Origin: a candidate division Hyd24-12 bacterium UBA6080
Lineage (GTDB): Bacteria; Fermentibacterota; Fermentibacteria; Fermentibacterales; JCC-6
DNA: 64,000 nt
Assembly: GCA_002436025.1 (NCBI GenBank)
Contig: DIXM01000002.1
Location: forward strand, 245,659-309,658
Direction of reading: 5' to 3'
Positions 7,601 to 25,916 of this stretch are shown here, one piece after another. The translations under genes were made by a program, and so were the position numbers. The notes under the pieces were generated by a model. The model was given only the letters and a program-made list of their open reading frames with translations, made no database searches and was not told the origin of the DNA. Positions within the stretch are counted from its first letter, which is position 1, and each line of letters opens with the position of its first letter.

Positions 7601-8411
7601 CGACAAGATACAGCAGGAGTTCCTTCAGGCCGAGAACAGGATCAGCGTCGGAGACGAGCTCAAACCCGGCGTTATCAAGCTTGTCAAGGTCTACGTGGCC
7701 AAGAGGCGCAAGCTCAGGGTCGGCGACAAGGTCGCGGGCCGACACGGCAACAAGGGCATCGTGAGCATCATAGTCCCCGAGGAGGACATGCCCTACCTGC
7801 CGGACGGCACACCCGTAGACATCTGTCTCAACCCGCTGGGCGTTCCCTCCCGAATGAACGTGGGCCAGATCATGGAAACCAATCTCGGCTGGGCCGCCAA
7901 GACGCTGGGCTTCGATGTGGTGACACCGGTCTTCGACTCGGCGCACAACAGCGTGATAGAGGAAACCCTGGAAGAGGCCGGCCTGCCCCGCGACGGCAAG
8001 ACGGTCCTCTACGACGGCCGCACCGGCGAACCCATGAACGAGAGTGTTACCGTTGGTCTCATGTACGTTATGAAACTCGCCCATCAGGTGGAAGACAAGA
8101 TCCATGCCCGGTCCACAGGTCCGTACGCCATGGTCACCCAGCAGCCACTGGGCGGCAAGGCGCAGAACGGCGGCCAGAGGCTGGGTGAGATGGAGGTCTG
8201 GGCGCTCGAAGCGTACGGGGCGGCCCACTGCCTGCAGGAGATGCTCACTATCAAGTCGGATGACGTCGAGGGCAGGAACAGGGCCTACAGCAGCATCGTA
8301 CAGGGAAAGGCCATTCCCCCCTCCAGCACACCCGAGGCCTTCAGCGTTCTTCTGAACGAGATGAGAAGCCTGGCCCTGGATGTGGAACTGGTTACCGAGG
8401 AGGAGAACTAG
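4611..8411 (+). CDS. rpoB: DNA-directed RNA polymerase subunit beta
   Basis: 1266 aa. GTG start after AGGAG. Conserved beta-subunit blocks (e.g. GEGGLTRERAGFDVRDVHHTHYGRVCPVETPEGPNIGL). Confidence 0.95.
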   Translation: MNKDRPVRNYSRVTPALEVPDLLKVQRDSFENFLQADVPSDERLPQGLHKIFLDTFPIESASKEFSLEYVSFEVSPPKHTVKEALERGVTYCANLNAVMRLVTRDPESKSFKMGVDQKVFLGSLPIMTDSGSFIINGAERVIVSQLHRSPGVFFEEKVQQRNRRVHSARVIPHRGSWLEINLDPNDQIFAIIDRRNKRIPVTMLLRALGLSTDTQILAAFYPVVEKDLEAMLKRQSRSSDFIHRTFAEDIADPATGEVLVRCDEPVETVEKLENLVSRGITKARFLESRSERDNFDGIRKTLAKEESSLGAGVDKNEDSATMWIYEALRGTEAPSLDHARSYLRSMFFDSKRYSLSEVGRYKLNERLNINTSMDRLTLVVEDLVAIVDNLIMLREGTNTADDIDHLGNRRVKTVGELLSQEFSKGLSRMARTIRDKMGHQDKDKLRPQDLVNSRTLSSVINTFFGSSQLSQFMEQTNPLAELTHKRRTSALGEGGLTRERAGFDVRDVHHTHYGRVCPVETPEGPNIGLITTLSVYASINRFGFLETPYRRVIKGKITDEVVYLSADREDRTTIAEADSPVDAKGYLTGPLVRARKAGNFPMVRPDDIEYIDVSPMQLVGLSAALIPFLEHDDANRALMGSNMQRQAVPLLYTQPPVVGTGMEAVAARDSGALVTARRGGMVVEVDSRKIVVRADGDEYDFDRDDVYDLKKFQRSNQDTCINQKPMVSPGQRVEEGAILADGMATSDGRLALGVNALVAFTPWNGYNYEDAVVMSERLVKNDLFTSVHIEEYEVNFRETKLGPEELLRDIPNVGEDRKRNLDENGIIRVGARVRSDDILVGKVSPKGEQDLSPAERLIRAIFGQKAGDVKDTSLRAPNGMDGIVVDVKVYSRRDDTERGRRVLEERIDALREQKLNREQRLCKERDDMLCEVLTGQKAVNLIDSVTGEQYVPSGRKLTTASLRKVNFTDIDYGRQLCEDLKADDRARRILRSTSRELDKIQQEFLQAENRISVGDELKPGVIKLVKVYVAKRRKLRVGDKVAGRHGNKGIVSIIVPEEDMPYLPDGTPVDICLNPLGVPSRMNVGQIMETNLGWAAKTLGFDVVTPVFDSAHNSVIEETLEEAGLPRDGKTVLYDGRTGEPMNESVTVGLMYVMKLAHQVEDKIHARSTGPYAMVTQQPLGGKAQNGGQRLGEMEVWALEAYGAAHCLQEMLTIKSDDVEGRNRAYSSIVQGKAIPPSSTPEAFSVLLNEMRSLALDVELVTEEEN

Positions 8412-8412
8412 A

Positions 8413-11400
8413 ATGCACAGCAATCCCTCTCCAAGAGATGTGAATGCTTTCCCCACCGATTTCAGGGGGATCCGCATAAGCCTCGCCTCTCCGGACACCA
8501 TAAGGAACTGGTCCCACGGCGAGGTCACCAAGGCTGAAACGATAAACTACAGAAGCTACAAGCCCGAACCTGACGGCCTCTTCTGCGAGCGCATATTCGG
8601 GCCTGAAAAGGACTGGGAGTGCGCCTGCGGAAGGTACAAGAGGATCCGCTACCGAGGCGTGAAGTGTGACCGGTGCGGGGTGGAAGTGACCATGTCCAAG
8701 GTGCGGCGCAGCCGCATGGGACACATTGATCTCGCAGTTCCCGTGTGCCACATATGGTACTACAAGAACCGCCAGATCTCAAAGCTCCTGGACATAACCA
8801 ACATCGATCTCGAAAGGGTTCTCTACTACGAATCATACATCGTTGTGGCCAGCGATCATCCCCAGCTCCGGCCCGGCACCGTCCTCGGTGACGAGGAGTA
8901 CTACGCCGCAAAGGAAACCTACGGGAAAGACACCTTCAAGGTGGGCATGGGCGCCGAAGCGATCGCGAACCTTCTGGCCGGGCTCGATCTCGAGGAGCTG
9001 GCCGCCATGCTCCGCACCTCCATCGCCAACGAAACGACCCTTTCCAGGCGTCAGAAGAACGTGAAGAGGCTGAAGGAAGTGGTGGCTTTCACGAACTCCC
9101 GGGCCGAGAACCGCCCGGAGTGGATGATCCTTCGAATACTTCCCGTGCTGCCTCCGGGTCTTCGGCCCCTGGTTCCCCTCGACGGTGGCCGCTTCGCCAG
9201 CAGTGACCTCAACGACCTCTACCGCAGGGTCATCAACAGGAACAACCGCCTGAAGAGGCTTCTTGACCTCCAGGCGCCCGACGTGATCCTTCGCAACGAA
9301 AAGCGGATGCTTCAGGAAGCGGTTGACGCGGTGCTTGACAACTCCAGCCGCCGCAAACCAGTGAAGGGCGCGGGCATGCGCCCGCTCCGAAGCCTCTCCG
9401 ACCTTCTGAAGGGGAAGCGGGGAAGGTTCCGCCAGAACCTTCTGGGCAAAAGGGTGGACTACTCAGGCCGAAGCGTCATCGTGGTCGGCCCCGAACTCAA
9501 GCTTCATCAGTGCGGTCTTCCGAAAACCATGGCCCTCGAGCTTTTCAAGCCCTTCGTGGTTGCCAGGTGGGAGAAGAAGTACGGTTGCGGCGTGAAGATG
9601 GCCCAGAAGAAGGTCGAAGAACGCCCGGAAGAAGTCTGGGCCATACTCGAAAAGGTTATCAGGAACCACCCGGTTCTCATCAACAGAGCTCCCACTCTGC
9701 ACAGGCTGGGAATCCAGGCCTTTGAACCCGTGCTGGTCGAGGGCCTTGCCATCAGGCTTCATCCGCTCTCCTGCGCCGCCTTTAACGCCGACTTCGACGG
9801 TGACCAGATGGCGGTTCACGTTCCCCTTTCCGCCGAGGCCCAGGTCGAGGCCAGAATGCTCATGCTGGGAAGCAGGAACATTCTCAAACCCGCCAGCGGC
9901 GAACCGGTGGTCACGCCCAGCCATGACATGGTCATCGGAGTGTACTACCTGACCAAACCCATGGTCGCCGCCAAGGGCGAAGGGATGGTCTTCTCGGGCA
10001 GGGAAGAGGTCATCGGCGCTCTGGATGCCGGCAAGGTTGACTATCACGCCAAGATAAAGATCAGGGGCGTGAACAGGATCGGCGAAACCGGCAACGACGG
10101 CGAGATGAGAAAACCCACGTACTGGAAGGACTACACGACCCCCGGTCAGGTGGTTTTCAACGGGATAGTTCCCGAAGGCATGGGTTACATAATGGCCAAC
10201 GGCCAGATCCCGCACGAAAAGGTTTTCGGCAAGAAGGGCCTTTCCTCGATGGTCTCCAGGTGCCACCACAACGAAGGCGCCGTGGCCTGCGCCGTATTCC
10301 TCGACAACCTGAAGAGCCTCGGCTTCCACTACAGCACCATCAGCGGGCTTACCGTGGGCATGCGTGACATGATCATCCCCGACATGAAGACCGAGATCGT
10401 CAGCGAGGGCAGGAGGCTCGTGGCCGAGGTCGAGGAGAGAGCCGGGAAGGGCGAACTAACCGAGGCCGAACGGTACAACAGGATCATCGACATATGGAGC
10501 AAGGCCACCGAAGACGTGAAGAAATCCATGATGGATGTCCTCGAGAGGGACAAACACGGTTTCAACCCCATCTTCATGATGGCCCACTCCGGTGCCAGGG
10601 GAAGCGTTGACCAGGTCAGACAGCTCGCAGGCATGAGAGGTCTCATGTCGAAGCCCAAGAAGAAGCTCTCCGGCGAGCTGGGGGAAACCATCGAAACCCC
10701 CATTTTAAGCTCACTGAAGGAAGGCCTCTCGGTCATCGAGTACTCCATCAGTACCCACGGGTCCCGCAAGGGTCTCGCCGACACAGCACTCAAGACCGCC
10801 GATGCGGGTTACCTCACCAGGCGTCTTGTGGATGTCTGCCAGGACGTTGTGATCACCATCGAGGACTGCGGCACGATAAGGGGCAGGAACATCAGCGCCC
10901 TGAAAGAGGGCGAGGAGATACTTGAACCCCTCCGCGACAGGATCGTGGGCAGGGTTACCGCCGAGGACGTCTTCGATCCCATCGGTGACGAGATCATCCT
11001 CGAGGCGGGACGCGAAGTTACGGCCGAGCACGCGCTCAGGATCGAGGAAAAGGGCATCGAGACCGTCAGGATCCGAAGCGTTCTCACCTGCGAGGCTGAA
11101 CACGGCCTTTGCGCCAGGTGCTACGGATGGGACCTCAGCCGAAACCGCATGGTGACAAGGGGAGAAGCGGTGGGAGTCATCGCTGCCCAGTCCATCGGAG
11201 AACCCGGCACCCAGCTCACCCTGCGCACGTTCCACACCGGTGGTGTTGCCGGCCGTGAGGCCAAGGAGACTGAAGTCAGGGCAAGGCGCGCCGGAAAGGT
11301 CAGTTTCCGCAACATCCATATCGTTGAGGGCTCGGACGAATCCGGCAAGGTCAACCGCATAGCCACCAGGAACGGTCAGATCGTTATTCTCGACGAAAGC

Positions 11401-13185
11401 GGCGATGCGGTGTCAACCTACGACATCGTGCCCGGCTCACTGCTCAATGTGACAGAAGACCAGCAGGTGGAGCGGGACGATCTGATCTGCAAGAGCGATC
11501 CGTTCATCATCCCCATCGTGAGTGAACACAACGGGTCGGTCCACTACGTCGACATCGAGGAAGAGATCACCCTCAGGGAGGAGATCGACAGCGAGCAGCG
11601 CAGACAGATGGTGATCGTGGAGGACCGCAGCCGTACTCTTCACCCTCACCTCTTCATCCTTCCGGAGCACATCGTTGTGCTAAGCGGAAGACCCCAGCGG
11701 AGGGACCGGGAACTCCGCACCATGCACGACCTCCTGAAAGAGGCTGATTCCTCCACGGGCCGGATCGTTTTCACCTACCGCGACCTCGGCTCGGTCAGGA
11801 ACACCTCCCTCCTTGAGGACTTCGTAGCTTCCAGGGACGAGAAGATCCCGCATGTAGGCGTTGACTGCAGAAGGGTTCACACCGGCAGTTACGCCGCCTT
11901 CGTTGATGCCATCAACCTCATTGAGCCCCTGGGCAAGAAGAGCGGTGGCGAACTCTGGAAAAACCTCAGGACCGCCATGGACAACCTTGCAGAGGCCTCA
12001 TCCAGGAACAATGAAGAGATGGAGACCCATTTCATCAGCGCCCTCCTCGAGTTCAGCAAAAAGGTTCCCATGGTGCTCTCCGTCGCCGACCTCAACAGGG
12101 GCCACACGGGCACCCGGAAACTGGTGTCGATGCTCTGCGAGTCGATCGATCAGGGCAGGATACTCTTCATCGCCAGTTTCTCCCGCAGGGGTCTTCGAAG
12201 CCACACCGTGGCCCGGGGCCGGCAGCGTACTCAGGACCAGGACCCGGTTGAAGAGTTCATCAAGGACAACGTCCTCGGCGTCTACCCCATCCCCAGCGGG
12301 GCTCACCTGCGCGTGGAGGACGGCGCCCTGATCAAGATGGGCGTTCACCTGGCCAGGATAGAGAGAAGGCTCGGTCAGCAGAGGGACATCACCGGCGGCC
12401 TTCCCCGGGTGGAGGAACTCGTGGAAGCGAGATGCCCTCTGGATGCAGCGGCGATCGCGGAGATAAGCGGTATGATCGGTCTCAGTTCGATCAAGGCCGC
12501 CATGCGCACCGTGACGATCCGGGGCGACCAGGGTCAGGAATCCTCCCTCAAGATCCAGGCTTCGAAGCACATCAGGGTGCGCGAGGCGGATCATGTCGAG
12601 GCAGGCGACAAACTCACCGAGGGCCCGCTCGATCCCCACGACATCCTGAGGGTGAGGGGAACCGAGGCGGTGGAGGATTACCTCCTCAACGAGATTCAGG
12701 AAGTCTACAGGCTTCAGGGAGTGAAGATCAACGACAAGCATGTGGGCATCGTCGTGCGCCAGATGCTTTCGAAGGCCAAGATCGAGGACCCGGGCGACAC
12801 CAGGTTCCTCGAAGGCTCCCAGGTGGACAGACTCGATCTCAACCGTCACAACATGGAAGTGATGAGGCAGGGCAAGAGGCCTGCCACGAGTGACGTTCTG
12901 CTGCTGGGCATCACCAAGGCATCCCTCGCAACCGACAGTTTCCTTTCGGCGGCATCATTCCAGGAGACGAACACAGTCCTCGCTGATGCAGCCGTTCAGG
13001 CCAAGGTCGATCCTCTGCTGGGTCTGAAGGAAAACGTCATTGTCGGTCACCTCATTCCAGCGGGAACCGGTTTGCCTCTGTACAGGAACGTGAGGCTTTT
13101 CCTGCCCGACGGCGGCGCACTGCCGGAGCCGGTCAGGCTTGAGCCTGAAGAAGATACGCTTGACAATTTCCATTTCGATGCGTAA
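8413..13185 (+). CDS. rpoC: DNA-directed RNA polymerase subunit beta' (long form, about 1590 aa)
   Basis: ATG at 8413, 2 nt after the rpoB stop. Zinc-binding CxC...CxxC N-terminus. NADFDGD catalytic motif. The ORF-track start at 8380 overlaps rpoB and was rejected. Confidence 0.95.
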   Translation: MHSNPSPRDVNAFPTDFRGIRISLASPDTIRNWSHGEVTKAETINYRSYKPEPDGLFCERIFGPEKDWECACGRYKRIRYRGVKCDRCGVEVTMSKVRRSRMGHIDLAVPVCHIWYYKNRQISKLLDITNIDLERVLYYESYIVVASDHPQLRPGTVLGDEEYYAAKETYGKDTFKVGMGAEAIANLLAGLDLEELAAMLRTSIANETTLSRRQKNVKRLKEVVAFTNSRAENRPEWMILRILPVLPPGLRPLVPLDGGRFASSDLNDLYRRVINRNNRLKRLLDLQAPDVILRNEKRMLQEAVDAVLDNSSRRKPVKGAGMRPLRSLSDLLKGKRGRFRQNLLGKRVDYSGRSVIVVGPELKLHQCGLPKTMALELFKPFVVARWEKKYGCGVKMAQKKVEERPEEVWAILEKVIRNHPVLINRAPTLHRLGIQAFEPVLVEGLAIRLHPLSCAAFNADFDGDQMAVHVPLSAEAQVEARMLMLGSRNILKPASGEPVVTPSHDMVIGVYYLTKPMVAAKGEGMVFSGREEVIGALDAGKVDYHAKIKIRGVNRIGETGNDGEMRKPTYWKDYTTPGQVVFNGIVPEGMGYIMANGQIPHEKVFGKKGLSSMVSRCHHNEGAVACAVFLDNLKSLGFHYSTISGLTVGMRDMIIPDMKTEIVSEGRRLVAEVEERAGKGELTEAERYNRIIDIWSKATEDVKKSMMDVLERDKHGFNPIFMMAHSGARGSVDQVRQLAGMRGLMSKPKKKLSGELGETIETPILSSLKEGLSVIEYSISTHGSRKGLADTALKTADAGYLTRRLVDVCQDVVITIEDCGTIRGRNISALKEGEEILEPLRDRIVGRVTAEDVFDPIGDEIILEAGREVTAEHALRIEEKGIETVRIRSVLTCEAEHGLCARCYGWDLSRNRMVTRGEAVGVIAAQSIGEPGTQLTLRTFHTGGVAGREAKETEVRARRAGKVSFRNIHIVEGSDESGKVNRIATRNGQIVILDESGDAVSTYDIVPGSLLNVTEDQQVERDDLICKSDPFIIPIVSEHNGSVHYVDIEEEITLREEIDSEQRRQMVIVEDRSRTLHPHLFILPEHIVVLSGRPQRRDRELRTMHDLLKEADSSTGRIVFTYRDLGSVRNTSLLEDFVASRDEKIPHVGVDCRRVHTGSYAAFVDAINLIEPLGKKSGGELWKNLRTAMDNLAEASSRNNEEMETHFISALLEFSKKVPMVLSVADLNRGHTGTRKLVSMLCESIDQGRILFIASFSRRGLRSHTVARGRQRTQDQDPVEEFIKDNVLGVYPIPSGAHLRVEDGALIKMGVHLARIERRLGQQRDITGGLPRVEELVEARCPLDAAAIAEISGMIGLSSIKAAMRTVTIRGDQGQESSLKIQASKHIRVREADHVEAGDKLTEGPLDPHDILRVRGTEAVEDYLLNEIQEVYRLQGVKINDKHVGIVVRQMLSKAKIEDPGDTRFLEGSQVDRLDLNRHNMEVMRQGKRPATSDVLLLGITKASLATDSFLSAASFQETNTVLADAAVQAKVDPLLGLKENVIVGHLIPAGTGLPLYRNVRLFLPDGGALPEPVRLEPEEDTLDNFHFDA

Positions 13186-13618: not shown

Positions 13619-14086
13619 ATGAGAAGAAACAGACCGAAAAGGCGTGAGATACTTCCTGACAGGAAGTACGGAAACCTGGTGATCGCCAAGTTCATAAACA
13701 ACATCATGCACCAGGGCAAACGCTCAGTTGCCGAGGGCGTGGTATACGACGCTTTCGACATGATATCCGAAAAAACTGGTCAGGACCCCGTGGCCGTCTT
13801 CAACAAGGCCATGAACAACGTCCGCCCCACCCTCAAGGTGAAATCCAGGAGGGTTGGCGGTTCAACCTACCAGGTGCCCGTCGAGGTCAAGCAGAGCGAG
13901 CGCGACGCCCTGGCAATGCGCTGGATAATCAGCTACTCCAGGGGCCGCAAGGGGCGCAGCATGGCCCAAAGACTGGCCCAGGAGTTCATCGAGGCCTCCC
14001 AGGGCGAGGGCAACAGCGTCAAGAAGCGGGAAGACACCCACAAGATGGCCGAAGCCAACAAGGCTTTCGCCCACTACCGCTGGTAA
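13619..14086 (+). CDS. rpsG: 30S ribosomal protein S7
   Basis: 155 aa S7-like (MRRNRPKRREILPDRKYGN...). Confidence 0.92.
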   Translation: MRRNRPKRREILPDRKYGNLVIAKFINNIMHQGKRSVAEGVVYDAFDMISEKTGQDPVAVFNKAMNNVRPTLKVKSRRVGGSTYQVPVEVKQSERDALAMRWIISYSRGRKGRSMAQRLAQEFIEASQGEGNSVKKREDTHKMAEANKAFAHYRW

Positions 14087-14089
14087 TAA

Positions 14090-14161
14090 TTGGGGGACAC
14101 AATACTTGATTATCCGAAACGATGCGGGTCAAACTGGATAAGTAAGTTTTGTGTCCCCCAA
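14090..14161 (+). repeat. Palindromic repeat element copy A (72 nt)
   Basis: 13-bp perfect terminal stems TTGGGGGACACAA / TTGTGTCCCCCAA around a 46-nt interior. The conserved 5' motif TTGGGGGACACAATACTTGATTATCCGA recurs at 15049 and, inverted, at 16257. Starts 3 nt after the rpsG stop. Confidence 0.65.
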
Positions 14162-14177
14162 AATCCAAAAACCAAAA

Positions 14178-14564
14178 TCATTCCTCGAACACTCCATCGA
14201 CGAACTGCCCGTGATTCCTCCAGCAGTTCGCGTTCCATCCCCGAAGGCTGAACGTGTCCCTCTCTCTGCCCATGATACGGTATCTGTACTCGATGCCGGT
14301 CCTGGGGCAGACCAGACCTGCATGAACGTATCCTGAGATTGTGTTCAGCTTCTTCCAGCCGTTCCCCGGGGGATACTGATTGTGCTCTGCAAGGTAGAGT
14401 TGAAGCGCGCCCGCTATGGTTCTCAGATTCGACCTGCAGGAAGCAAGCTTTGCGCTTTCCGAAACGTCCCTGAATTTGGGAATGGCGATGGCGGACAGTA
14501 TTCCCAGTATCACCACCACTATCATGAGTTCGATGAGTGTGAAGCCCTTGTTGGAATCCTTCAC
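14178..14564 (-). CDS. Prepilin-type N-terminal cleavage/methylation domain protein (type IV pilin / T2SS pseudopilin-like)
   Basis: N-terminus MKDSNKGFTLIELMIVVVILGILSAIAIP is the class III signal with G|FTLIE. GTG start in a GTGA overlap with the upstream gene's stop. Confidence 0.75.
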   Translation of the reverse strand: MKDSNKGFTLIELMIVVVILGILSAIAIPKFRDVSESAKLASCRSNLRTIAGALQLYLAEHNQYPPGNGWKKLNTISGYVHAGLVCPRTGIEYRYRIMGRERDTFSLRGWNANCWRNHGQFVDGVFEE

Positions 14565-14965
14565 AGCTCACCTGCCTTGAAGGCTTCGATCTCCATGTCG
14601 GAAGTGTAATAGAGTCCGCCCGGGGTTCGAAGCGACCATTCATCGTCGTACTCCAGTTCGAACACGAAACCCGACGGAAGGTCAAGATCGGGTGCCAGGG
14701 GCATGGTATCGGTCAATGCCCGCCAATCCTGAACCCTCATGAAAACCGCAGCGACAGAATCCCTTTCCGCCTGCTCCAAAGGGGGCGGGGAGCCTACAAA
14801 ACCGCTGCCTTCAGGCTGATACAGCAGGACAACGATGATCAGAAGCGCACCCGCCGCGCCAAAGACCAGAATGCCGGAGCCTTTCTTCCGCTTTTCCTTC
14901 GGCGGGGCCTTCTCCTCGTAGACGATGTCCATGTCCAGCTCAAGGGGTTTCTGAGTGTTCGTCAT
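14561..14965 (-). CDS. Hypothetical membrane protein (co-transcribed with pilin)
   Basis: Start chosen at the ATG (MTNTQKP...) preceded by GGAGGAG; the ORF track's GTG at 14992 is upstream of it. One predicted TM segment (ILVFGAAGALLIIVVLLY). Confidence 0.5.
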   Translation of the reverse strand: MTNTQKPLELDMDIVYEEKAPPKEKRKKGSGILVFGAAGALLIIVVLLYQPEGSGFVGSPPPLEQAERDSVAAVFMRVQDWRALTDTMPLAPDLDLPSGFVFELEYDDEWSLRTPGGLYYTSDMEIEAFKAGEL

Positions 14966-15048
14966 GCCGGTCTCCTCCAGTAAGAGATTCACTCATCCCA
15001 ATCCCTGATTATCAAAAGAACTCCCACGGTTGCAAAGGGGTGGGTAAC

Positions 15049-15144
15049 TGGGGGACACAATACTAAATTATCCGATGGGAAAAATCTGAATCTTCAGGGT
15101 AGTTCAATGCAAACCTGCGGTTTTTACAGGTTTGTGTCCCCCCA
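15049..15144 (+). repeat. Palindromic repeat element copy B (96 nt)
   Basis: TGGGGGACACAATACTAAATTATCCGA...TTGTGTCCCCCCA with 12-bp perfect terminal stems. Lies in the divergent region between the minus-strand pilin operon and the plus-strand genes. Confidence 0.65.
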
Positions 15145-15160
15145 TTCCCTTGGAGGCCTT

Positions 15161-15861
15161 TTGAGACACTTCACATTGGCCCTCATCCTTCTTACGAAAT
15201 GGTCAGCTTATGGAGCAGATTCCGCATTATTCCGTTTCATCGGCTTTTCCACCGATGGAGTTTTTTCGCCTGGGAGCAGTACGGCGTACAGGACGGCAGC
15301 GGTTTTCCGTGGAGCACGGTGACCATCCAGTCGACTGCTGACGGATCAGTCATCCATGAGTTCAGCGTCGTCCTGGAAGACGGGTTCAAGGGAGAAGGCG
15401 ACCCCGGGGGGGAGAGTATGCGGCTGGCACACGAGGCTCTCCTCTGCCTGTCCGGCGGAAGCTGGGACAGGGGTTCGCTGCTCGTTCACCATCCCCCCAC
15501 AGACATGACGTTCGGGGGAAGCCAGGTGACCTTCTGCACGACTTACTACTCCCCCTCATACTACATCGGTGACTACACACTCGACCTTGTTACCGTGGAG
15601 ATTCCCGGGACTGAGATGGAGGAGTACTGGGGGTTCCCACCGCTTTCGTTGTCCGTGGTGTTTTCCGATAACATCACAGGTCTCACCCGAACGGTGATGG
15701 ATACATCCGACAGGACCGGCAACCTCCAATGGGTGTTCGGTTACGGCATACAGGACGTCTGGTGCATTGGGGACTCGGTCTTTGCTGCTGCCATCCAGTG
15801 CGTATCCATAGGTTTCGAAGGACCTGACCTGCGGTACCTGATGACGGGCTGGACGATTTGA
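15161..15861 (+). CDS. Hypothetical secreted protein; reading frame interrupted at a T6 tract (15261-15266)
   Basis: TTG start after GGAGG encodes a signal-peptide-like MRHFTLALILLTKWSAYGADSALF... in the frame of ORF 15107..15322. The long body continues in the frame of ORF 15199..15861. One extra T in the T6 run would join them into about 233 aa. Confidence 0.45.
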
Positions 15862-15885
15862 CCGGTCACATCGTGAGGAGGAACG

Positions 15886-16203
15886 ATGTCTTCTGAGAAA
15901 GCCTTCACCTGCAGCCAGTGCGGGGCCCCCGAACTGGAACGGTCGGGGGAGGGAAAGCTGCGATGCCCATATTGCGGCAGCCTCTACAGCTTTTCAGTGC
16001 GGGGTCCGACCGTTGTGATCCGAAAGGGAGCAAACGTCATCATTGGCAAAAAAGCAAAAGTTACGATAAGAGGCGGGGTGGAGATCCACGAAGGCGCCCG
16101 GGTCAAGATTGACGGAGAGGTGACACTTCTGGAAAGGGCGCCCGAAGAGGCCATCAGCGCCGCCAGACTGAGGCTGCGAGCAACGGGCAAAGACGAAACT
16201 TAA
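15886..16203 (+). CDS. Small zinc-ribbon protein with bactofilin-like beta-helical repeat segment
   Basis: GAGGAGG RBS. CSQCG...CPYCG zinc ribbon. Then VVIRKGANVIIGKKAKVTIRGGVEIHEGARVKIDGEVTLL, an alternating hydrophobic/Gly pattern as in bactofilin DUF583. Confidence 0.6.
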   Translation: MSSEKAFTCSQCGAPELERSGEGKLRCPYCGSLYSFSVRGPTVVIRKGANVIIGKKAKVTIRGGVEIHEGARVKIDGEVTLLERAPEEAISAARLRLRATGKDET

Positions 16204-16215
16204 GATATCTAAACT

Positions 16216-16249
16216 GAAGGTTCATTTTTCTTTAAAAAATGAGGCCTTC
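16216..16249. terminator. AT-rich palindromic hairpin between convergent genes
   Basis: GAAGG...CCTTC stem around the near-palindrome CATTTTTCTTTAAAAAATG. A striking AT island in GC-rich DNA. Confidence 0.3.
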
Positions 16250-16256
16250 GGTGCAA

Positions 16257-16285
16257 GATAATTTAGTATGGTGTCCCCCAATTTA
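16257..16285 (-). repeat. Repeat copy C (inverted, left-arm motif only)
   Basis: The reverse complement reads AATTGGGGGACACCATACTAAATTATC, about 24/27 identity to copies A and B. No partner arm. Abuts the stop codon of the MFS gene. Confidence 0.6.
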
Positions 16286-17464
16286 TTCCTTGATCGGCTT
16301 CAGGGTGAAACCAATGATGGCAGCCACGAAGCACAGGGCCGCGGCGGTATAGTAGGCTGCGGTGTAGCCGCCGGTAGAGTCGAGTATCCTTCCCGCCATC
16401 ATGGGGCCGATCTGCCCGCCCACACCCCACGCTGTGAAAAGAACTCCGTAGTTCAACCCCATGTTTTTCGTGCCGTAGAAATCACCGACCGCGGAGGGGT
16501 AGACGGAAAGCATGGCGCCGTAGGCGAAGGTGACGACCATCGCGCCGAAAAGGATGGATGCGAAGCTCCCGAAGCTTGCGAAGAAAAGAAGGACAGTACC
16601 CTGGGCGAGGTAGAGGATCATCATGGTCTTCGCCCGTCCCAGTTTGTCCGAGATGGTTCCCGCAATGGGCCGGCCAAGGGCGTTGCTTATTGCCATGAAG
16701 GCCACCAGCAGAAAGCCGAAGTTCCGGCCGGTCTGCACGCTGGCGATCGTTGAAAGGTGGCCGATGATCATCAGACCGGCCAGCGCCCCCGCGACGAACA
16801 TCACCCAGAGCTGGTAGAACTGCCGTGTGCGTATCATCTGTTTCCAGTCGTAGTCACGTACCGAGACCCTGGCCTGCCGTCCGGCAGCCTGCACCTGCTT
16901 TTCGGGGTTCTTTAGGGTCTGGGCGAGTCCCACCACCACCAGGAAGAAGCCCGCTCCGAGAATCCGGAAGGAGTTGAAGATCGTGTAGTTCTGTATCAGG
17001 TAGTTGGTGAGGGGCGCGATGTAGATGGTTGCCGCGCCGAACCCTCCCACCACCATGCCCGAGATCAGCCCCTTGCGCTCAGGTGGGAACCACTTTATGG
17101 CGACGGGGGTCGTGGCCGAGTAACCAAGACCGATTCCCGACCCCGCCATGATACCGAAGCACAGCACAAGCCCCGGAACGGTCTGGAAGAAACTGGCCAG
17201 AACCATGCCTCCCCCCACCAGTATCCCGGCCAGCGTCACTACGACCCTGGGGCCGTACTTGTCCTGAAGACGGCCACCGAAGATCATCATGACGGCGAAC
17301 ATTGCCACAGCCATCGTGTAGGGCAGCGAAGCCTGGGTGCTGCTCCATCCAAGCGATTCCCGCAGGTTGGCGGCGAAGATGCTCCAGGCGTAGAGAACTC
17401 CGAAGGAAAGGTTGATGCCCATTCCGGCCAGGACGATGGTCCATGCCCTTTTGTTCCTGTTCAT
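16283..17464 (-). CDS. MFS transporter, oxalate/formate antiporter (OFA) family-like
   Basis: 393 aa with 12 predicted TM helices. OFA-like motifs. Confidence 0.8.
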   Translation of the reverse strand: MNRNKRAWTIVLAGMGINLSFGVLYAWSIFAANLRESLGWSSTQASLPYTMAVAMFAVMMIFGGRLQDKYGPRVVVTLAGILVGGGMVLASFFQTVPGLVLCFGIMAGSGIGLGYSATTPVAIKWFPPERKGLISGMVVGGFGAATIYIAPLTNYLIQNYTIFNSFRILGAGFFLVVVGLAQTLKNPEKQVQAAGRQARVSVRDYDWKQMIRTRQFYQLWVMFVAGALAGLMIIGHLSTIASVQTGRNFGFLLVAFMAISNALGRPIAGTISDKLGRAKTMMILYLAQGTVLLFFASFGSFASILFGAMVVTFAYGAMLSVYPSAVGDFYGTKNMGLNYGVLFTAWGVGGQIGPMMAGRILDSTGGYTAAYYTAAALCFVAAIIGFTLKPIKE

Positions 17465-23861: not shown

Positions 23862-25916
23862 ATGAGCAGCCCCAGTGCACTTCGCAACATAGGCATCTTC
23901 GCCCACATCGATGCGGGCAAGACCACGGTCACGGAGAGGATACTTTTCTACACCGGCCGCACTCATCGAATGGGAGACGTTGACCACGGCACCACGGTGA
24001 TGGACTGGATGCCGCAGGAGCGCGAAAGGGGCATAACCATCGTTTCCGCAGCCACCACGTGCACCTGGAAGAACACCACCATAAACATCATAGACACACC
24101 CGGTCACGTTGACTTCACGGCCGAGGTCGAGCGTTCCCTCAGGGTCCTCGACGGCGGAGTGGCTGTATTCTGTGCGGTGGGAGGCGTCGAACCCCAGACC
24201 GAAACTGTCTGGCGCCAGGCTCTGAAGTACGGGGTCCCGACCATTGCTTTCGTGAACAAGATGGACCGCCAGGGAGCAGATTTCCCCAGGGTGCTCCAGA
24301 TGATGCGGGACATCCTTGGGGCTGTGCCCCTGCCCGTTTTCCTTCCCATCGGAAGCGGACAGGCCTTCAGGGGCATCGTGGATGTGATACGCAGCCGTGC
24401 GCTCTTCTTCGATCCAGAATCACTTGGCGAGACCATACGTGAAGAGCCGATACCCGAAGAGATGGCCGATTCCGCGGCCCGGGCCCTCGAGGCCGTTCAG
24501 GAGGCCGTGGCTGACCTTTGCGAAGATGCCATGGAACGTTACTGCACGGGGAATCTCGATCCGTCCCTCATCATCCCGCTCATCAGGAGGGGAACGCTTG
24601 AGAAACGGTTCGTTCCGGTCCTCTGCGGCGCCGCCCTCAGGAACGTGGGCGTTCAGCGTCTTCTCGACGCCATAGTCGACTGGCTTCCCGCCCCTGAAGA
24701 GCTTCCTCCCGTCACAGGCATCAAGTCCGACGGCACCGAAGCGGAAAGGTCCAGAGGCACTGATTCGCCCTTCACCGCCCTGGTGTTCAAGATACAGACC
24801 GACTCCCATCTGGGCAGGCTCGCCTACATGAGGGTGTATTCGGGAAGCGCGAAGGATGGCCAGGCCGTTCTGAACAACCGTACGGGCCGGAAGGAGAGGA
24901 TGATGCGCCTGGTCCGCATGCATGCGGACAAGCGTGACCACCTCGACTTCGTACAGGCCGGAGACATAGCGGCGGCTGGAATGAAGGACGCTGCAACGGG
25001 CGACACCCTGACGGCGCCCGAACACCCGATTACCCTTGAATCCATCGATTTCGCCGAACCGGTCATGCAGATGGCCATCGAGCCCGCGGGCGCCCGTGAT
25101 GACAAGGCTCTGGAGGACGCCCTTCAGGAGATGACCAGTGAGGACCCCAGCCTGAGGGTGGGAGTAGACCGCGATACCGGCCAGAACATCATCATGGGCA
25201 TGGGAGAGCTGCATCTGGAGATCGTGGTGGACAGACTAAAGCGGGAGAAGAATCTTCAGGTTCACACCGGGAACCCCCAGGTATCCTACCGCGAGGGCGT
25301 TCTGCGCCCGGGCAGGGGCGAGGGCAGCTTCGAGAGGCTCATCGCGGGCCGTGGCAATTTCGGCCATGCCGTGGTGCAGGTCGAACCCACTGGGGGGGGG
25401 ATCGAGATAGCAAGCACTGTTTCAGGGCTTCCCTTTTCCTTCACCGAGGCCGCCAAAAGCGGGATCAGGGGCAGTGTGGGCGCCGGAGCACTTGCGGGTT
25501 TTCCAGTGGATGGCATTCGTATAACGCTGATCCAGGCAAGGCTTCACGAGACCGATTCGACGGAACTTGGCTATGCCTCGGCCGCTGCAGCCGCCTTCCG
25601 GGAAGCACTGAAGGATGGCTCACCGGTGATCCGCGAGCCCATAATGATGCTGGATGTGATATCCCCGGTAGACTACCTCGGCGAAGTCCTGGGCGACATC
25701 AGCTCCCGCCGTGGACAGGTCGAGGCCATCCACCAGCGCGGGGAAGCGCGCAACATCCACGCCAGGGTTCCCCTGGCCGAGCTGTTCGGGTATTCCAGCA
25801 ACATAAGGAGCCTCACCCAGGGCCGCGCAGGGTTCTCCATGCAGTTTTTGAACTACGAGAACACCCCGCCCAACGTTCAACGCGACCTTCTTCAGAAAAT
25901 GGGCATCATCACCTGA
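23862..25916 (+). CDS. fusA: Elongation factor G
   Basis: 684 aa. [14 protein letters not shown] and DTPGHVDF G-motifs. Domains II-V recognisable. Separated from rpsG and from rpsJ by accessory DNA. Confidence 0.9.

Follow-up and report, generated by a model that had tools for sequence, protein, structure and literature searches.

RAYT-like genes (REP-associated tyrosine transposase) bordered by terminal inverted repeats (TIRs) that are long and contain the sequence GGGGWSAS have been named TIRYT, or TIRtrons, and the TIRs are dispersed in some genomes as single copies, dimers, and groups (Di Nocera et al., 2013; PMC3733652). Most TIRYT were later equated with subclass 2.1 of TnpA_Y1, for which a C-terminal helix-turn-helix (HTH), similar to Bac_DnaA_C, HTH_23, or HTH_28, is reported (Quentin et al., 2018; PMC6006769). 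The present analysis concerns three repeats in a 64,000-nucleotide stretch of contig DIXM01000002.1 (hereafter, the window) from the Fermentibacterota bacterium UBA6080 (Candidatus Fermentibacteraceae). The repeats lie in a 2.2-kb islet between rpsG and a convergent gene encoding a major facilitator superfamily (MFS) transporter, and the islet contains two divergent two-gene cassettes. It is likely that the three repeats are dispersed TIR copies of a TIRYT/TIRtron (a dimer, a decayed dimer, and a lone arm) and that the genes of the islet are not their cargo. The best reading is thus that the 2.2 kb do not form one transposon and that non-autonomous TIR/REPIN-like elements settled in the gaps between the genes of a variable islet. 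An earlier interpretation based on the letters alone (the sequence-only reading) had proposed an undescribed repeat-bounded system, a proposal superseded by the 2013 publication of RAYT-like genes with GGGGWSAS TIRs (PMC3733652). A false lead would thereby be removed, the islet being the footprint of a little-studied branch of the RAYTs rather than a new cassette system.

Repeat copies in the islet and their cognate transposase

The motif of 24 to 27 nucleotides (nt) (AATTGGGGGACACAATACTTGATTATC; core form TGGGGGACACMATACT..ATTATC) was found at three sites in the window, 14088-14114 and 15046-15072 on the plus strand and 16257-16283 on the minus strand, with 0, 3, and 3 mismatches, respectively (24/27 identities for the last site). 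The number of matches expected by chance was 0, as none was present in 100 shuffled sequences. Further copies of the 24-nt motif, with up to 6 substitutions, were not found elsewhere in the 64-kb window or outside the islet in ten 20-kb orthologous loci. The repeats are thus real and of the transposon TIR type, as the sequence-only reading had proposed, and they fit the published TIR. The right end of the segment, which that reading had placed at 16285, was confirmed in part: an inverted copy is present, but the motif ends at 16283, position 16285 being the end of the MFS stop codon.

Element A (coordinates of all elements in Table 1) consists of two arms of 26 nt (14090-14115 and 14136-14161) that are 88% complementary and separated by a 20-nt loop. 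Its DNA fold has an energy of -20.8 kcal/mol (z = -6.6 versus shuffled sequence), and orthologous dimers are present in L001, L002, L150, and L151 (L numbers designate the loci examined). Element B combines a full left arm (15046-15072) with a short right arm of 12-15 nt at 15132-15146. It is located directly 5' of the ribosome-binding site of a DUF2259 gene and is kept there in every relative possessing DUF2259. The arm of element C, at 16254-16283, reads CAAGATAATTTAGTATGGTGTCCCCCAATT, and about 55 nt located inward from it align with the 3' untranslated flank of a transposase gene described below. At the site of element C, the relatives contain nothing (L007, L005, L008), a lone arm (L010), or a full dimer (L002/L003). 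A putative relic of an inner TIR arm, assigned with low confidence, lies within a stretch of about 65 nt that is present in the alleles containing both cassettes and absent from those containing cassette 1 only.

The Rfam scan of the whole window at gathering thresholds detected tRNA only and no RNA family over the repeats. Scans for promoters and terminators between 13.9 and 16.5 kb gave nothing at elements A or C, and a single sigma-70-like site was found upstream of cassette 1, a count that is not above chance. Target-site duplications, for which TAAT/ATTA had been suggested as candidates, were not evident at the flanks of A (TAATAATT / AAAATCC), B, or C, and no clean empty site was found among the lineages.

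No homologue of the Y1 transposase was detected by tblastn within the window, in agreement with the sequence-only reading as far as a Y1 gene is concerned. A gene encoding a Y1 protein of 218 residues is present in the same genome, on the same 799-kb contig, about 80 kb upstream from the start of the window. This locus was reached via the 90%-identity cluster of the decarboxylase of L130/L140, which has one member on the contig of the window. The gene order is Orn/Lys/Arg decarboxylase, Y1, and PAS histidine kinase. The 3' flank of the Y1 gene (L137:9249-9278) contains CAAGATAATTTAGTATGGTGTCCCCCAATT, which is identical at 30 of 30 positions to window 16254-16283, and the alignment extends about 55 nt further inward. 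This identity, together with the extended alignment, indicates that element C was copied from the right end of the transposase unit. The window copies are thus non-autonomous, as had been proposed, their cognate gene being located outside the window next to an arm identical to copy C.

In L130/L140, which are of metagenomic origin, a Y1 gene of 221 codons is preceded by a TIR dimer, followed by an arm, and adjoins the decarboxylase gene. The same synteny was observed in at least three Fermentibacteraceae lineages, and the gene is intact and syntenic in the L007 genome. In the L010 genome, a deletion at L153:5495-5510 fuses MAR.. to the C-terminal part of Y1, the 3' arm being kept; this lineage, with its Y1 pseudogene, also lacks dimer A and cassette 1. 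Five further contigs carry the Fermentibacteraceae-type arm, with tetranucleotide r values of 0.89-0.93 versus at most 0.84 for all other phyla. Their placement by tetranucleotide usage suggests that Fermentibacteraceae contain more dispersed copies of the arm. A metagenome scan with the Fermentibacteraceae-type 24-mer returned 9 stretches and missed known carriers, and hence is not a census. The association of a transposase, its flanking arm, and identical copies within one genome provides a well-documented case and extends the TIRYT/TIRtron repeat family to the Fermentibacterota.

A repeat family bracketing Y1 genes in many phyla

Species-representative genomes were scanned for exact matches to a 21-nt degenerate core, the counts obtained being lower bounds rather than copies per genome. 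Among the matches listed, the 21-mer was present in more than 116 stretches from many phyla and groups, including Desulfobacterota, Omnitrophota, Planctomycetota (anammox genera among them), Gammaproteobacteria, Nitrospira, Bacillota, Hydrogenedentota, Armatimonadota, and others. Thiomargarita and Nitrosomonas were also among the hosts (L011-L126), and one contig of 2.6 kb with the 21-mer had been placed, perhaps wrongly, in a Nanoarchaeota bin. The occurrence of the same 21-mer in many phyla suggests that the family extends far beyond the 26 cases reported in 2013.

With up to 4 mismatches allowed, the matches listed comprised 250 copies of the arm, 42 hairpin dimers among them, and 18 inverted arm pairs separated by 260-3500 nt, most of them by about 730 nt (range 329-1104). 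Thirteen of these 18 pairs belonged to loci containing a whole or truncated Y1 open reading frame (ORF), as detected by tblastn. The recurrent context was an arm, followed by a promoter-like stretch (TTGACA..TATAGT) and by an ORF starting with MARIARVV.PG.PHH.TQRGNRR. All arms read GGGGACAC near their outer tip, which fits GGGGWSAS as defined in the two reports on these repeats (PMC3733652, PMC6006769).

The bracketed ORF, of about 220 codons, matched Pfam Y1_Tnp (PF01797; E = 1e-11). Its only match in NCBIfam was the REP-associated tyrosine transposase family (REP_Tyr_transpos), with scores of 59-73 bits that did not reach the equivalog cut-off of 80. In a profile search against solved structures, the best match was TnpA_REP of E. 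coli (4ER8; 1e-7), ahead of ISDra2 TnpA (9e-6). The HUH motif (NHVHIV) and the catalytic tyrosine (RYIEQNPV) align with those of TnpA_REP. In an alignment of 12 sequences, the catalytic tyrosine was invariant and the first histidine was present in 11. The transposases possess a conserved C-terminal extension of about 85 residues (HERTGRPLG...KPGPK), and the profile derived from the 12 sequences matched no HTH protein among PDB sequences. The transposases of other phyla are about 45-54% identical to that of Fermentibacteraceae, in a sample chosen by exact identity to the 21-mer, which is therefore no gauge of the conservation of the arm.

Two arm pairs differed in content. At L103:5718-6821, inverted arms 1104 nt apart enclose genes for an MNT-like nucleotidyltransferase and a HEPN protein and no transposase, the only clear gene-carrying exception among the 18 long-range pairs listed. 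At L085, a pair with a spacing of 900 nt contains no recognisable gene. In several phyla, short tandem partial copies of its own tip and flank precede a full arm, for example ...gagttctggggacacaatgagttcTGGGGACACAATAC... or repeated GGGTAATTAT units (L015:3461, L024:1868-1954, L027:6564, L047:4844, L085:1105, and L109:7833-7874).

The sequence-only reading had described the segment as inserted exactly between two stop codons. In the window, the rpsG stop codon (TAA) is directly followed by TAATT+GGGGG, the tip of element A, and the tip of element C overlaps the MFS stop codon (16283-16285) by one base. The tip ..TAATTGGGGG directly follows the rpsG stop codon in the window, L001, L002, L150, and L151, and directly follows the stop codon of the decarboxylase gene in L140. 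It overlaps or supplies the MFS stop codon in the window, L001, and L002, and does likewise for unrelated genes in L133 and L128. ORFs facing an arm can extend into its sequence and terminate at the TAA within ..ACTAAATTATC (peptide ..NWGTPY*); such read-in ORFs were observed at L019:4701-5832 (375 codons) and at positions 16263-16430 of the window. Since the TAATT of the tip supplies a TAA, the outermost arms touch the stop codons of rpsG and the MFS gene. Abutment to stop codons is thus a general property of the repeat family and not the sign of a single insertion event. It could result from a target preference or from selective tolerance. Arms that supply stop codons matter for gene calling in metagenome-assembled genomes, where they can alter protein C-termini or lead to wrong gene calls.

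Structural versions of the islet among relatives

Relatives were obtained as ten loci by exact-sequence look-up of RpsG and as two more lineages through the cassette 1 protein. The variability of the site, suspected from the sequence alone, was borne out at these orthologous loci, where the region between rpsG and the MFS gene exists in three structural versions. Allele I comprises a short GC hairpin designated T1, element B, and cassette 2, with or without element C (L007 and L010; degraded in L008 and L005/L009). Allele II comprises dimer A, cassette 1, and a second full dimer, D (L001, L150, and L151). Allele III comprises A, cassette 1, B, cassette 2, and C (the window, which equals L004 and L006; L002/L003; and L127/L131). 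Repeat copies are present at every module border in the three alleles. Based on flank identity, L010 (allele I) is the nearest relative of the window (96-98%), and the lineages harboring alleles II and III are interleaved.

The repeats could in principle have misled assemblers, since they are classic break and join points for short reads. A chimeric join or collapsed repeat in the metagenome contig is nonetheless scarcely credible, since the islet has the same structure in independent ENA, JGI, and Logan assemblies (L004 and L006; flanks 100% identical) and diverged versions exist in L002/L003 and L127/L131.

The genes of the cassettes diverge with their host lineages. Identity between the pilins of cassette 1 was 81-82% for the window versus L001/L002 (flanks, 89-91%) and 87.6% for L001 versus L002 (flanks, 93-95%). 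For DUF2259, identity was 92% between the window and L010 and 77% between the window and L002. Overall, cassette genes are 76-88% identical between lineages, and their divergence tracks or exceeds that of the flanks. Recent horizontal transfer of the cassettes was therefore rejected. The membrane protein of cassette 1 was found only in Fermentibacteraceae, and all contexts examined corresponded to the rpsG locus. Mobility of the cassettes, as initially proposed, is thus not supported.

These comparisons bear on the proposal of the sequence-only reading that a non-autonomous TIR transposon carries the 2.2-kb segment, or each of the two-gene cassettes, as cargo moved as a unit by a transposase acting in trans on the outer inverted arms. 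Inverted arms do enclose the whole segment and also cassette 2 (93% complementary for the latter pair), the differences among relatives involve whole cassettes bordered by arms, the cognate transposase is encoded by the same genome, and the MNT and HEPN genes of L103 lie within inverted arms. Nevertheless, the cassettes occur singly or together, each with its own set of arms; cassette 2 is present in L007 without any right-hand arm; and, where cassette 1 is alone, a complete dimer instead of a single arm lies on either side. In addition, most of the 18 arm pairs listed surround a Y1 gene or its remnant rather than cargo, the 76-88% identity of the cassettes indicates no recent transfer, and cassette 1 was not found outside the rpsG locus of the family in the contexts examined. 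Cargo transposition is accordingly unlikely.

The same inverted repeats of 27 nt around divergent gene pairs had also evoked an invertible segment, in which a recombinase would flip the DNA to switch between the cassettes. Both cassettes were found in a single orientation throughout 13 lineages and more than 23 contigs, with no inverted version. No invertase or integrase is linked to the motif (the window was not screened for recombinases), the arms located elsewhere bracket Y1, and the same arms form hairpin dimers and surround the Y1 gene in many phyla. Phase variation by inversion is thus extremely unlikely.

In the lineages devoid of cassette 1, rpsG is followed by the T1 hairpin (L005:10478-10500, L007:10478-10499, L008:10480-10502, and L010:10478-10500), which reads CGGGGGRCACC-N3-6-GGTGYCCCCCG and has a fold z score of -8.4 in L010. 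The outer 10 nt of the TIR arm recur in the stem of T1, the tip sequence GGGGGACACC / GGTGTCCCCC being common to both. Among the sequences examined, T1 was found only after rpsG, perfectly alternating with the pair formed by dimer A and cassette 1. In L008, the GC stem is followed by TTTTTT, as in an intrinsic terminator. T1 may be what is left of a dimer, or it may have been native to the site and drawn the element there.

The resemblance raises the question of whether the repeats are terminators or RNA-stability hairpins that evolved locally, without mobile origin, and are alike because of a shared function. Elements A and C are located between convergent genes, A stands in place of the terminator-like T1, with its T-run in L008, and GGGGGACACC is common to T1 and the repeat tip. 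This origin is very unlikely in view of the distribution of the 21-mer, which brackets a transposase gene in many phyla, and of the 30 nt of element C that are identical to the transposase flank of the same genome. Moreover, no T-run follows A or C, where the terminator scan was empty. Termination may be a secondary effect of the hairpins. Hairpin A probably also acts as a hairpin at the 3' ends of the rpsG and pilin transcripts, which converge on it, in place of the GC hairpin of the relatives.

A mechanism for the dispersal of TIR copies can be proposed by analogy with TnpA of IS200/IS605 and TnpA_REP of E. coli. The Y1 enzyme would bind the hairpin of the TIR dimer in single-stranded DNA and would cut and rejoin the DNA at the foot of the hairpin. 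Short non-autonomous elements would in this manner be copied to new intergenic sites without target duplication. The three versions of the islet would result from ordinary recombination, partly between directly oriented copies of the repeat. In particular, a deletion extending from the left arm of B to that of a C dimer, in an ancestor containing both cassettes, may have produced the cassette-1-only version. In allele II, the loops of the D dimers have a common 3' part, these dimers are similar to the C dimer of L002, and internally their left arm matches the C-left and not the B-left type. These traits of the D dimers fit a recombination between B-left and C-left that would have eliminated cassette 2. 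A deletion between A-left and B-left was considered as the source of the cassette-2-only allele and rejected, since the T1 hairpin and a spacer precede B. Recombination between repeats probably removes modules, and of the two cassettes, cassette 2 has probably occupied the site for longer. Cassette 1, an insert that varies among lineages, is always accompanied by dimer A. The alleles of the islet form a natural series for repeat-to-repeat deletion.

Several observations weigh against dispersed TIR copies as the complete explanation. The Y1 gene of the window strain has no 5' arm, only the 3' arm being left, and the Y1 gene of L010 has lost about 490 nt by internal deletion. Copies of the arm were found at two loci only (the islet group of 4-5 arms and the transposase flank); since only about 78 kb of the window genome were read, dispersal within this genome is thinly documented. 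Single transposase sequences gave no HTH match in Pfam for the C-terminus at E values up to 5. The presence of repeats at every border of an islet with three alleles exceeds what plain intergenic colonisation predicts, and the alternation of T1 with dimer A plus cassette 1 over an interleaved phylogeny is unexplained by simple deletion. Because of the border repeats, the A/T1 alternation, the interleaved alleles, and the MNT and HEPN pair of L103, we keep in mind a second possibility, in which the hairpins are working joints and Y1, or hairpin-guided recombination, swaps modules bounded by TIR dimers at the fixed rpsG address. Such an exchange, although improbable, would amount to a cassette-exchange system operated by an HUH enzyme instead of an integrase. 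Intergenic colonisation by dispersed TIR copies is the account retained here.

The features of the islet and its borders are given in Table 1.

Table 1. Repeat elements, genes, and borders of the islet (window coordinates).
Feature	Positions	Strand	Basis
rpsG, ribosomal protein S7, left islet border	13619..14086	+	ORF, PF00177
Element A, complete TIR dimer, REPIN-like hairpin	14088..14163	none	Motif match, inverted-repeat search, fold
Cassette 1 gene 2, prepilin-type pilin/pseudopilin-like, 128 aa	14178..14564	-	PF07963 N_methyl, E = 2e-10
Cassette 1 gene 1, orphan membrane protein, 134 aa, one hydrophobic helix	14561..14965	-	ORF
Putative relic of inner TIR arm, CAATCCCTGATTATC	14999..15013	+	13/15 versus inner part of arm A; low confidence
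Element B, decayed TIR dimer	15046..15146	+	Motif match, inverted-repeat search, fold z = -2.3
Cassette 2 gene 1, DUF2259 secreted protein, pseudogene in window strain	15161..15861	+	PF10016
Cassette 2 gene 2, 105-aa protein, N-terminal CxxC..CxxC zinc ribbon, C-terminal half without assigned fold	15886..16203	+	ORF
Element C, lone arm plus inward remnant	16200..16283	-	Identity to L137:9249-9278, extended alignment
MFS transporter, right islet border; conserved in all relatives	16283..17464	-	PF07690, E = 1e-52

The gene descriptions of the sequence-only reading were largely confirmed for the prepilin-type pilin, the GTGA overlap, and the frameshifted gene, but not for the bactofilin, and the zinc ribbon had sub-threshold matches only. 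In cassette 1, the pilin gave NCBIfam matches to the N-terminal regions of GspG/PilA, all below the cut-offs. The ORF of the membrane protein, which overlaps the start of the pilin gene by GTGA, can be extended to 14992 with a GTG start codon, and the 134-residue protein had no match in Pfam or NCBIfam. Its homologues form 7 clusters among 5.8 billion proteins, six of them with 75-100% identity and the seventh with 45%, on a 602-bp contig of unknown taxon.

In cassette 2, the DUF2259 gene of the window strain displays two lesions, the replacement of ATG by TTG at 15161 and a -1 frameshift in a run of six T at 15262-15267, which are identical in two independent assemblies (L004 and L006). Tblastn with the intact protein of L010 found the window gene split over two frames. 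The gene is intact in L010, L007, and L002, and the downstream zinc-ribbon gene is intact in the window. The 105-residue product of the latter gave a weak match to hexapeptide repeats (E = 0.015-0.05), which is the sole support for a beta-helix, and was not identified as a bactofilin, as no bactofilin match was obtained. This gene is found in all relatives apart from those with cassette-1-only alleles. In L005/L009:10517-11623, another insert occupies the same address: a gene of 368 codons, whose product weakly matches a 6-bladed beta-propeller (E = 6e-4), stands in place of element B and most of DUF2259, with no arms nearby.

The str operon is split in the window, with about 9.8 kb between the end of rpsG (14086) and fusA (23862-25916; 684 codons). 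This block contains the islet and genes for the MFS transporter, an HI0933-like flavoprotein, a DUF5777 protein, two DOMON proteins, an FMN reductase, a radical SAM protein, and a GGACT protein, and is kept in 10 of 10 related loci. The rpoC ORF (window 8380-13185) is unusually long (1590-1601 codons), suggesting lineage-specific insertions.

Comparison with described systems

As in integrons, whose cassettes are associated with attC sites, imperfect palindromes separate small variable gene modules in the islet. The attC sites are defined by RYYYAAC/GTTRRRY core sites. An integron-like array, in which the hairpins would act as attC-type sites for the insertion of cassettes by a tyrosine recombinase, could also account for short cassettes whose content varies among relatives. 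We give this model next to no weight. The ends of the elements read TAATTGGGGGACAC and do not contain the attC cores, the cassettes are divergent rather than co-oriented, and the modules were not found elsewhere. The linked enzyme is a Y1 HUH transposase and not IntI, for which no search was made.

The elements also resemble the miniature inverted-repeat transposable elements (MITEs) of bacteria, such as RUP, NEMIS/Correia, and ERIC, which are short, non-coding, gene-adjacent sequences with TIRs of 15-30 bp, stable hairpins, and mobilisation in trans. Element C keeps about 55 nt of the internal 3' end of its parent, as would a MITE derived by deletion. Classical MITEs have a DDE parent and generate target duplications, whereas the parent here is a Y1 HUH transposase and the flanks show no evident duplication. 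The HUH/tyrosine core of this enzyme is shared with IS200/IS605, as indicated by the profile match to ISDra2 TnpA, and recognition of single-stranded hairpins without target duplication would be expected from this relationship. In contrast to IS200/IS605, which move as single strands by "peel and paste" and have subterminal hairpins in the same orientation and no TIRs, the unit described here has long inverted arms and a protein nearer to TnpA_REP.

Comparison with the REPIN-RAYT systems (Bertels and Rainey, 2011; PMC3116915; Bertels et al., 2017; PMC5581495) reveals both common and distinct features. In both cases, two inverted units form a hairpin of about 75-130 nt, as found for element A and for dimers in L001, L002, L133, L140, L150, and L151, and lone units look decayed. 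In several Fermentibacteraceae lineages, a RAYT-type transposase occupies a conserved site with the same repeat in its flanks, and the spread of the repeats would likewise be non-autonomous. The arm of 24-27 nt differs from REP sequences, which are short palindromes tagged by GTAG (or CGTC), in having neither a GTAG tag nor a stable internal stem, so that only the dimer folds. In the part of the genome read, copies appear to be few and not in the hundreds. The identity of the 21-mer across phyla points to horizontal spread of the whole unit, as opposed to purely vertical inheritance.

The closest system is TIRYT/TIRtron, with which the comparison is limited to the available text of the two papers cited above. 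The Fermentibacterota are not among the published examples in that text, and the window strain keeps the 3' arm only. The clustering of 4-5 arms in a variable islet of 2.2 kb and the tight abutment to stop codons are likewise not described in that text. The features held in common are a RAYT-like Y1 gene of about 220 codons located between long inverted arms with GGGGACAC, which corresponds to GGGGWSAS; perhaps also the dispersal of the arms as single copies, dimers, and groups in moderate number; a C-terminal extension beyond the HUH/Y core; and a patchy distribution across phyla.

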